Source of the DNA: Deltaproteobacteria bacterium
GTDB taxonomy: Bacteria; SAR324; NAC60-12
Length of the DNA stretch: 57,802 nucleotides
Assembly (NCBI GenBank): GCA_038150265.1
Contig: JAYOTF010000009.1
Coordinates: forward strand, 1 to 57,802
Reading direction: 5' to 3'
Shown: one piece after another, positions 9,001 to 12,000 of the stretch
Layout of the letters: every line of letters begins with the position of its first letter
How positions within the stretch are numbered: the first letter of the stretch is position 1
Program-made: the position numbers

Positions 9001-12000
9001 TGGAGGAGGTCCTCCGGACGCTGGAGGCGATGCTGGATCAGAAGCTGGCCGCTCAGCGGGACCCTCTGAAGGAACGGGTCCGGTGCCTCCTTCATGAAGG
9101 GCGGCAGAGTCTGTTGCAGCAGCTTCAGCGGTTTCAGGAGCAGCACCAGCTTCCTGCCTCCTGGGGCAAGGCCATCCGCCTCCGTGAGATGGCGCTGGAG
9201 CTTCCCGGTGCGCTGGGGCTGGAGGCGTATCAGGACCTGCAGCAACGGCAGCTCCGCTTTTTGGCAGAAGAGGTCAACCCCGGATTGCTGGCTCAGTTGC
9301 GGCAACTGGCATCTGAGTTTGAGGAAGGACTGCGGCAGATGCGCCAGGCCTTCGGGACGCTGCTGGCCGCACAGGCGCCCTTTGCTGAGGTGGAGTGGGA
9401 GCGGGCCCTGCCGGTGCCCCAATTTCCAGATCTGCCACCACCCGCGTTTTCGTCAACGCTGGAATGGACGCACACCGCTCGTTTCAAGAGCCTCCTCAGC
9501 CTGGGGCGAGAAGCCTTCAAGTCTCCGGAAGCGCGGATGCAGGCGTTGCGAGAGCGATTGGAGCAGCAGCTCAAGGAAGACGCGGCCGAAGCGCTGCAGT
9601 TTGACCTGTTCAACTACCAGGAAAACCTGCTGCACCGCTACCTGCTGGCAGGGTTGACGCAGATGGGGCAGGAGTTTCGGGAGAGCGCGCTGCTGCTGGG
9701 GCAGTCACTGCTGGCGGAACAGCGGAGTCTGGAAGCCCTGCACCAGCGAGATCAGGCTTCTCAGGATGACCTCAGTCTGCGCCTGACGAAGCTGCTGGAA
9801 CGCCTGCAGGGCTCCGGAGGCTAGCGCTGGTCGAGCGCCTCAAGCAGTTGGGTGTGGATGCCACCGAAGCCGCCGTTGCTCATGATGACCACGACGTCCC
9901 CCGGACGCGCCTGCTCCGTGAGGTGGGCCACAATCTCCGGAACCCCCGGGAACGCAAAGGCGGCCTTGCCCTGCCCCTGCAGGCTGCGGACAACGGCCTC
10001 AATGTCCAGGCGCTGTTCCACCGGAATCTGCTCCTGGCGGTGGGGAACCGTGAGGATGACGGCATCGGCATCGCCAAATGCCTGCTCCAGTTCCGGCTGA
10101 TGCACCTTGAGCACGCTCGTGTTGGAACGGGGCTCAAACACCGCGATGCAGCGCTGGTCCGGATGCTTGAGGCGAACCGCTGAGAGGGTCTCCCGGATCG
10201 CTGTCGGGTGGTGGGCAAAGTCGTCATAAACGGTCACGTCTCCCGCCACGCCTCTCAGTTCCAGGCGACGCTTGATTCCTTCAAACGCCTGAAACGCCTT
10301 CTGAATCTGCTCATCCGTCAGGCCGTTATTCCGGGCGAGCACGATCACGCCCAAGGCATTCCGGACATTATGGGCCCCGAGCATCGGCAGAAAGAACTCG
10401 GCCGTGGCTCCGTTTTGCACGACCTCAAAGCGGGTTCCGGTGACGCCTGCGTGTTCTGCCAGTGTCAGGCTCCGGGCCTGAACGTCACAGGAATCCCCCA
10501 GCCCAAACGTCACCACCGGAGAGAAGGCCTGCTGGGTCACCTGCTGGACATTCGGGTCATCGCCATTGGCGGCAATGAGGCCATTTTCCGGGACCAGCCG
10601 CAGGAGCAACCGAAACGACCGGAGGATGTCTTCCAGTGAGCCAAAAATATCGGCGTGATCGAACTCGAGGTTGTTGAGGATCAGCTGGTCTGGGAGGTAG
10701 TGAAAGAACTTGGACCGCTTGTCAAAAAATGCGGTGTCGTATTCGTCCCCTTCTGTCACGAAGAAGCCGCCGCTTCCTTCTCGGCAGCTGGTCTTCAGGT
10801 TCCGGGCGATGCCTCCGATGAGAAACCCGGGGTCGCGCCCGGCGTGCAGCAGCGTCCAGGCGAGCAGAGACGTCGTGGTGGTTTTGCCATGGGTACCGGT
10901 CACGACCAGCGAGGTGGTGCCGCGGATGAAGTGTTCCTTGAGCAACTCGGCCATGGAAACGTAGCGGAGCTTCTGAGCCAGGGCGGCTTCGACTTCCGGA
11001 TTGCCCCGGGAGAGGGCGTTGCCAATGACAACCAGGTCCGGACGGTCCTGGAGGTTTGCGGCCGCATACCCACTGGCAACCGGAATCCCTTCTGCCGCAA
11101 GGAGGTCGCTCATGGGGGGATAGACGTTTTGGTCCGAGCCGGTGATGCGGTGTCCCCGGTGGTGCAGCAAGACAGCAAGGGAGGCCATCGCGGTGCCGCA
11201 GATTCCGGAAAAATGAATGTGATGGGGGGCGTGACTCATGCGTGACGTTGAGGGAAGAGGCTGAAGGAGTTCAGTGGGTTCCGGTGCTGCCAAAGCCTCC
11301 GGTACCGCGGACCGAGTCGTCGAGCTCGTCCACGACCTCCACGGTGCAGGGTTCCAGGCGCCGGATCAGCAGCTGGGCGATGCGTTGGCCGAGCAGGGCC
11401 TGGGCTTCAGTGAGGCCGTCTCCGGCACCCAGGTAGCGGAGCGGCACAAGGATGCGGCCCCGGTAGTCCGGATCAATGATGCCCACGCTGTTGGCGAGCA
11501 TGAAGGATGTTTTCATCAGGCTGGAACGCGGGACGACTTCCGTGTAAAAGCCGGTTTCCGGTTGCACCGAGATGCCTGTGTCAAAGAGGAAGACGGTTTC
11601 GGTTTTTTGTTCAACGCGGTAGGCGGTGAGGTCGAGGCCGGCGTCAGAGGCGTGGCCCCGGGTGGGAACCGTGACCTCGGGGTAATGGCACTTGAGTTTG
11701 AGCTGCATCTAGAGAATCCAGGTGGTGGTGAGGCCGACGACGTGCTTTTGATACTCGACGTTGGAGAGGTTGGAGTCGTTTCGGGTCAGGGTGGCCGTGA
11801 CTTCAAACAGCAGCGTGGGCCAGGCCTTCCACTGCAGAGCCGTCGTCAGGGTGTGCTGCAGGCTGTGTTCCGGAGTGTCCTCGGCTTCCACGTAGTCGCT
11901 TTGGGTGGCGCCGTAGCTCAGTTTCGGAGTCCAGTCTCCAAGAGTCCAGGTGCTTTTGACGGTTGCCCCGCGTTCCGTGAGGTCGTTGGTGGGTTCGGAA

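Follow-up and report, generated by a model that had tools for sequence, protein, structure and literature searches.

A gene family with a predicted BshC-like fold mirrors MurD in SAR324 bacteria and may help to build a wall peptide for loading by Mpl

Most SAR324 genomes lack the wall ligase MurD and carry an orphan gene, referred to here as gene X, which tracks this loss and probably acts somewhere in the synthesis of the stem peptide. The use of MurC, MurD and MurE to make the wall peptide is treated as invariant. We propose, with about an even chance of being right, that most SAR324 bacteria build this peptide apart from the sugar nucleotide, with X joining L-Ala to D-Glu and the ligase Mpl loading the finished peptide. 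The DNA analysed here, the window, is a stretch of 57,802 nucleotides (contig JAYOTF010000009.1 of assembly GCA_038150265.1) from a genome of the SAR324 family NAC60-12, which we call G000. A preliminary description of it had claimed that this family retains only Mpl and MurF as stem-peptide ligases, and that a pre-made peptide must be loaded by Mpl with no replacement gene for the missing enzymes.

Within the window, mpl (9821..11239, minus strand) is the sole MurC/Mpl-type ligase gene of G000. Its product of 472 amino acids scores 457.4 bits on the Mpl HMM (TIGR01081; cut-off 388.7) and 322.4 bits on the MurC HMM, which is both under the MurC cut-off of 335.1 and lower than the Mpl score; its top match among solved structures is the Mpl of P. 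arcticus, 3hn7. An alignment to 3hn7 was used to compare the residues described as Mpl-specific in passages of PMC3060825: all 15 of those in the C-domain are kept in the window protein, Tyr182 and the (S/T)AFFDKRSK loop are both present, and the SGP motif reads SMA, with one of three residues kept. For a characterised Mpl, passages of the same paper give a rate of 260 per min with tripeptide, against 1.4 with L-Ala-D-Glu and 0.7 with L-Ala, making the tripeptide about 190 times faster than the dipeptide and about 370 times faster than L-Ala. The full set of C-domain residues fits that part of the earlier account in which Mpl is the sole entry ligase and would attach a ready-made stem peptide to UDP-MurNAc. 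Immediately upstream lies dut (dUTPase; 11271..11708, minus strand). A dut-like gene, recognised by sequence likeness only, stands head to head with gene X in 20 other loci, and its place beside both mpl and gene X is possibly a weak trace of a past linkage between the two.

To place this genome, we used a SAR324 set of 88 genomes, comprising G000, 44 others of the NAC60-12 family, 19 of its sister family (f2) and 24 of other families (f3-f7). The genomes are drafts of 51-100% completeness (97.8% for G000), and one relative in the NAC60-12 family, G039, is a single contig. A PF08245 search of G000 returned two places, the window mpl and murF (C2:17400-18773, minus strand; 331.6 bits against a cut-off of 288.6), and 13 MurC, MurD, MurE, MurL and MurI queries from relatives added only a chance match to an ABC binding protein, in agreement with the claim that Mpl and MurF are the only stem-peptide ligases of this genome. 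A third Mur-fold gene, FolC (C38:26013-27353), was overlooked by PF08245. The losses described for the wider family were likewise borne out: MurD is present in 0/44 NAC60-12 family genomes (and absent from G000), in 19/19 f2 genomes and in 0/24 elsewhere, and MurE in 0/44, 19/19 and 23/24, respectively. Incomplete assembly does not account for these zeros, which become 0/45 for both genes with G000 and include the one-contig G039, because alr (C11:26412-27530, minus strand, in G000) was found in 40 of the same 45 genomes. The loss of MurD and MurE from the NAC60-12 family is thus confirmed, and none of MurC, MurD and MurE, by which the canonical MurC-D-E-F pathway would be recognised, was found in G000.

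Two MurC/Mpl-type genes are present in 16/19 f2 genomes and a single gene in the others, except for G022 and G052, which have two copies, both below the MurC cut-off; four single copies in genus g2 score barely over that cut-off (336-342 bits). Of the remaining wall genes, mraY, ddl, ftsW, rodA, PBP2 and Pal score above their cut-offs in G000, the G000 matches to murG and ftsI fall under theirs, and dapF is in 5/5 SAR324 genomes tested. The division and wall genes of G000 are dispersed in the genome but present. A FastTree phylogeny places the MurF proteins of the NAC60-12 family in a separate clade.

In three SAR324 genomes of other families (G064, G065 and G085), an orphan gene of about 410 codons without a Pfam match lies directly behind mpl. 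This is gene X. Homologues were identified, with a single query and a profile in agreement, in 38/44 NAC60-12 family genomes and in G000 (C3:124672-125988, minus strand; 411-438 aa by choice of start), in 22/24 f3-f7 genomes and in 0/19 f2 genomes. Thus, gene X is present in 61 of the 69 MurD-less SAR324 genomes and in none of the 19 that bear MurD, giving a tally of 61 genomes with X only, 19 with MurD only, eight with neither and none with both; as these genomes are kin, the mirror pattern amounts to roughly one event (in f2) rather than 88 independent cases. Each of the 22 f3-f7 genomes with gene X has mpl immediately upstream of it, and in the NAC60-12 family X lay apart from mpl in every locus fetched. 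Five of the six NAC60-12 family genomes in which X was missing belong to genus g10 (67-92% complete), and the copies in G070 and G042 have an internal stop. A distant paralogue in G048 adjoins a gene for an amino-acid adenylation protein, a neighbour that fits amide formation and hints that a carrier might deliver the donor. In genus g10, gene X was seen next to flagellin-like genes, close to contig ends.

Beyond SAR324, a profile search at E 0.001 gave 788 representatives of the gene X family. Among the longer proteins, 19 clusters consist of X fused to an Mpl/MurC-type ligase and four of MurI fused to X, with a MurI part that scores over its cut-off; the X fusions derive from a single clade. 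We then catalogued 80 metagenome loci. An Mpl/MurC-like gene is adjacent or fused to X in 58 of the 60 with downstream room (the two lacking this neighbour being members of other clades). Of the 65 with upstream room, 14 have murI next to X or fused to it, and murE is found in 42 of the 80; neither murC nor murD was found in these loci, which are contig loci and not whole genomes. In L322 and L323 the X-ligase pair sits among murF, ddl and ftsA. Homologues of the murE genes in these loci carry the names of Ca. Nomurabacteria, Paceibacter-type taxa and Patescibacteria, and we refer to the loci as Patescibacteria-type. Their partner ligase reaches 240-270 bits on the MurC HMM and a lower 153-199 bits on that of Mpl, both under the respective cut-offs, and the DDFAHH and EPRSNT motifs are missing from it; it cannot be assigned clearly to either Mpl or MurC. 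Since gene X follows the absence of MurD across genomes and has links elsewhere to mpl and murI, the earlier statement that there is no replacement gene does not hold.

Gene X is rare in Myxococcota (4/401 sampled), and all six X-bearing genomes examined from this group also possess MurC together with MurD or MurD2, as typed by BLAST. In two of them (G088 and G089) it adjoins murL-murD2, again a D-Glu context, and the dcw cluster of these genomes is without murD; in G187 its neighbours are ATP-grasp-like genes. A FastTree analysis groups the NAC60-12 X proteins with the Myxococcota copies and not with those of f3-f7 (support 82). Given this position, together with the separate MurF clade, the NAC60-12 family may therefore use X otherwise, for example in the salvage of D-Glu-mDAP.

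Structural models of gene X generated from two separate alignments reached pLDDT values of 93.9 and 92.0. The top fold match of both was BshC (Z 16.5, rmsd 4.7 over 339 aligned residues, and Z 19.2, rmsd 4.1 over 332), with Foldseek giving E 6.7e-4 to a BshC-like fold, followed by class I LysRS (Z 10.8 and 11.5); MshC (Z 6.3 and 7.7), other class I synthetases (Z 5-8) and cyclodipeptide synthases (under 6) scored lower. Sequence identity to the BshC and LysRS matches is 6-9% (7-9% for BshC). The models thus predict a BshC-like fold, possibly one in common with class I tRNA synthetases, and we place X outside the BshC family because it has no family match (Pfam at E 0.1 for three SAR324 copies; NCBIfam at 1e-15) and because BshA was found in 0/5 genomes tested. 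Searches for sequence matches in the PDB, and for likeness to MurL, were also negative. Seven residues (T89, H92, N130, D245, G356, Q360 and Y363) are conserved in 137-143 of 143 sequences, including H92 in 142, G356 in 143, Q360 in 139 and Y363 in 138. BshC is presumed to join cysteine to an amine in the making of bacillithiol. As of 2015, its activity had not been demonstrated in vitro (passages of PMC4360819). The fold shared by BshC, MshC and tRNA synthetases suggests chemistry of this type, and it is for this reason that we consider X a candidate L-Ala-activating amide ligase.

The MurE proteins of X-bearing lineages are also changed. The DS[RT] motif of MurE domain 1 is present in 8/10 f2 and 3/3 Myxococcota proteins and in 0/11 from f3-f7, which have an acidic xEEF insert in its place and keep the DNPR motif; we take these DS[RT] and DNPR positions to bind UDP and mDAP. 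Of 39 complete murE genes close to X in the metagenome set, 38 are without domain 1. Because domain 1 is altered or lost in this way, and because Mpl is far faster on tripeptide, the combination suggests that the peptide is finished before it is loaded. The case from Patescibacteria is less strong than these counts suggest, since one Patescibacteria-type locus (L316) has a full-length MurE, 3/120 close homologues retain domain 1, and many Patescibacteria Mur ligases are without domain 1 in any case. An 890-aa MurE of f6 and f7, considered as a possible new ligase, proved to be a MurE-Alr fusion.

As had been claimed, MurI is absent (0/5 SAR324 genomes tested, one of them from f2). Its loss is not peculiar to the NAC60-12 family and is no pointer to scavenging, as the MurD-bearing f2 genomes are also mostly without any Asp/Glu racemase (13/19) and without a D-amino-acid transaminase (18/19), the latter being found in 8/88 SAR324 genomes and missing from G000. 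The MurL search, previously called uninformative, becomes informative with a positive genome, G089 (E 3e-101), and found none in four SAR324 genomes; with MurD at 0/45 in the NAC60-12 family and MurL at 0/4 in SAR324, neither member of the MurD2/MurL pathway was detected. We infer that the source of D-Glu is shared by the whole phylum. DapF is one candidate, since the Chlamydia enzyme has glutamate racemase activity according to PMC5885031. An Ala-Glu epimerase was rejected as a general route, its enolase-family domain being missing in G043, G048 and 14/24 f3-f7 genomes.

Six candidates for the enzyme that adds mDAP in the NAC60-12 family were ruled out. A 207-aa gene that precedes alr occurs throughout the phylum (15/19 f2) and has no Atlas match; ATP-grasp_4 ligases are lacking in G000; a GCS2 ligase occurs in 3/3 NAC60-12 family and 2/2 f7 genomes, hence unspecifically; whole and domain profiles for a hidden divergent MurE return only Mpl, MurF and FolC in G000, a weak match on C1 being an ABC binding protein; there is no second gene X paralogue in G000, where a match on C76 was an artefact caused by two unrelated proteins in the alignment; and neither mpl nor murF nor X has a neighbour that is conserved between the genera of this family.

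Under the reading that we favour, gene X would form the amide between L-Ala and D-Glu from free substrates. The L-Ala would either be adenylated for this or be drawn from a carrier, for instance tRNA. In f3-f7 and in the Patescibacteria-type lineage, mDAP would be added to the free peptide by a MurE whose UDP-binding domain is altered or lost; Mpl, elsewhere a recycling enzyme, would load the tripeptide onto UDP-MurNAc; and MurF would add D-Ala-D-Ala, with Ddl, MraY and MurG acting as usual. X and Mpl would have the same roles in the NAC60-12 family, with mDAP added by another enzyme. In its broader form, which we judge to be evenly poised between right and wrong, the proposal is of a third, widespread wall route, made up of a BshC-fold ligase, a UDP-freed MurE and Mpl as essential loader, in most SAR324 and one Patescibacteria clade, with MurE replaced, or D-Glu-mDAP scavenged, in the NAC60-12 family.

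X could instead work on UDP-MurNAc-L-Ala. Its mirroring of MurD, its fusions to MurI and to a ligase scoring better on MurC than on Mpl, and its place beside murL-murD2 where the dcw cluster is without murD would all suit such a role. We nevertheless think it unlikely: the SAR324 ligase retains the Mpl C-domain residues, the characterised Mpl is slow on L-Ala, MurE domain 1 is altered or lost alongside X, and the MurE gap of the NAC60-12 family would be left unexplained. It is rather unlikely, too, that the NAC60-12 bacteria take D-Glu-mDAP from foreign walls via peptide transporters, with X re-adding L-Ala and Mpl loading the tripeptide. This would fit a family without MurE or any substitute found for it, the lack of MurI, MurL and D-amino-acid transaminase in G000, the grouping of its X with Myxococcota copies that stand beside a full pathway and Mpl, and the OppA-, LdcA- and Ala-Glu-epimerase-like genes of G000, although all of these score below their cut-offs. 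However, of the two components by which classical muropeptide recycling would be recognised, AmpG was found in 0/5 NAC60-12 family genomes tested and an E. coli AmpD query had no match in G000; MpaA gave none there either. Moreover, f2 has the same D-Glu gap and retains MurD, dapF is kept, and net wall growth from scavenged peptide alone would probably be a heavy demand.

Most SAR324 genomes with X have no recognised source of D-Glu, which could also mean that X is a MurL-like ATP-dependent epimerase converting L-Ala-L-Glu to L-Ala-D-Glu, and MurL is itself proposed, in PMC8788868, to act via an adenylate. But gene X has no match to MurL, and the fusion of glutamate racemase to X in four clusters would make an epimerase needless. 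A stem peptide of other chemistry, without mDAP, would account for the separate MurF clade, but Pal of G000 keeps the Asp and Arg that we assume to bind mDAP; we regard these two readings together as very improbable. Finally, with drafts as incomplete as 51% and BshC as the closest fold, the absences might be put down to assembly gaps, or X to a divergent bacillithiol BshC unrelated to the wall. This is scarcely credible and largely refuted by the counts of MurD, MurE and alr, by the one-contig genome, and by the absence of BshA and of family matches given above.

The proposed route, in which peptide and sugar nucleotide are joined late, has parallels in known systems. The pseudomurein precursor of methanogens has a peptide built apart from the sugar and joined afterwards. 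That pathway is archaeal and uses other sugars, L-amino acids and Mur-fold ligases. On the pMur HMMs the score of the window protein is far below the cut-offs. Mpl recycling in E. coli and P. arcticus shares the ligase family and its motifs, as well as the loading of a whole peptide onto UDP-MurNAc before MurF, but Mpl is described there, in passages of PMC12844806, as non-essential and fed by wall breakdown, whereas in most SAR324 genomes it stands alone as entry ligase and has a link to a candidate enzyme of synthesis. In Xanthomonas and others, MurD2/MurL offers a second way to the L-Ala-D-Glu stem without MurI, by an ATP-dependent non-Mur enzyme; it differs in using a MurD-type ligase on the nucleotide (PMC8788868). 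It is the sole alternative found in print, and it relies on the same kind of ligases. Likewise, BshC, MshC and class I aminoacyl-tRNA synthetases, whose folds are likened here to the predicted one of X, join an amino-acid carboxyl to an acceptor, but X stands apart from BshC in its low identity, the lack of BshA and its wall-gene neighbours. The Chlamydia DapF (PMC5885031) shows how D-Glu may be had without MurI and bears on that supply only, not on the ligases.

Both Mpl recycling and MurD2/MurL, the nearest described systems, still rely on MurC, MurE and a ligase of the MurD type, and the fold of X is used in neither; passages of PMC5372718 and PMC12719100 hold nothing further on mechanism. 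In line with the preliminary description, a search covering titles and the beginnings of abstracts, outside subscription papers, found no publication on the loss of MurD and MurE or on gene X. The route would be categorically new if the inferred chemistry holds, with gene X as a strong candidate for its missing piece. If so, wall synthesis would be read differently from genomes, given a ligase outside the Mur group and an intermediate in the form of free peptide, an orphan family would gain a function, and the retention of Mpl without MurC and MurD would be explained; it would also provide simple substrates for an enzyme of the BshC fold, the chemistry of which was unsolved in the 2015 review (passages of PMC4360819). 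Were salvage true, a widespread aquatic lineage would depend on the wall fragments of other bacteria. Scans of viral contigs found nothing and no RNA data set was listed for the gene X region; at least half of this region was covered in six runs, three labelled estuary, two labelled aquatic and one unlabelled.

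Upstream of mpl (9821-11239, reverse strand) in the window lies dut (11271-11708), while on its other side mpl is convergent with a gene coding for a dynamin-like GTPase (7740-9824), which is itself arranged head to head with an M23 peptidase gene (6243-7580). X, the orphan gene for our candidate stem-peptide ligase, was found head to head with a dut-like gene in 20 other loci (in the range L096-L132). This placement of dut near both mpl and X hints that the three genes formerly made up one block, which has since been broken. In four family genomes, mpl is followed by a gene for a 464-aa hexapeptide-repeat protein (L016:10342-11736 in G039, together with loci L383, L385 and L388), which had no NCBIfam match; the copy in the window's own genome, G000, sits on contig C3.

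Distant paralogues of X, of about 540 aa, are encoded in two genomes, G048 (L432:6808-8445) and G068 (L433:2731-4338), the former adjoining a DltA-like adenylation protein. Their relatives, including P0128, P0136 and P0139-P0150, group as a separate unnamed clade. X itself also appears on contigs in bins labelled Opitutia and Methanobacteriota (L118 and L130), which are probably SAR324 DNA assigned to the wrong bins. In addition, a joined Mpl-X protein (P0110) is recorded under a freshwater mussel genome; its source is probably a bacterial contig processed by a eukaryotic gene finder.

Mpl is also joined to another domain in G058, where it continues in-frame into an acyl-CoA-synthetase-like domain (L379:4686-7508; 940 aa), as the result of either a genuine fusion or a misassembly. 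In SAR324 families f6 and f7, MurE and alanine racemase form a single protein of about 890 aa (L004-L009, L014 and L015), and in families f4 and f5 the two genes apparently lie side by side. Upstream of alr in G000 there is a conserved 207-aa orphan (C11:27530-28153), and a lytic transglycosylase gene is arranged head to head with it. The orphan occurs in 61 of the 88 SAR324 genomes and gave no match in Atlas.

Pairs of murL and murD2 were observed in three Myxococcota genomes, G088, G089 and G233 (L140, L144 and L356), a phylum absent from the distribution given in PMC8788868. The MurD2 proteins of G088 and G089 carry the Glu and Arg that this study links to L-Glu. Finally, in G000 a gene resembling DgcN precedes one for an Ala-Glu epimerase/DgcA-like protein (C4:96921-99046, equivalent to L439:12922-15047); both scored below their cut-offs, and the pair may possibly serve in D-glutamate utilisation.
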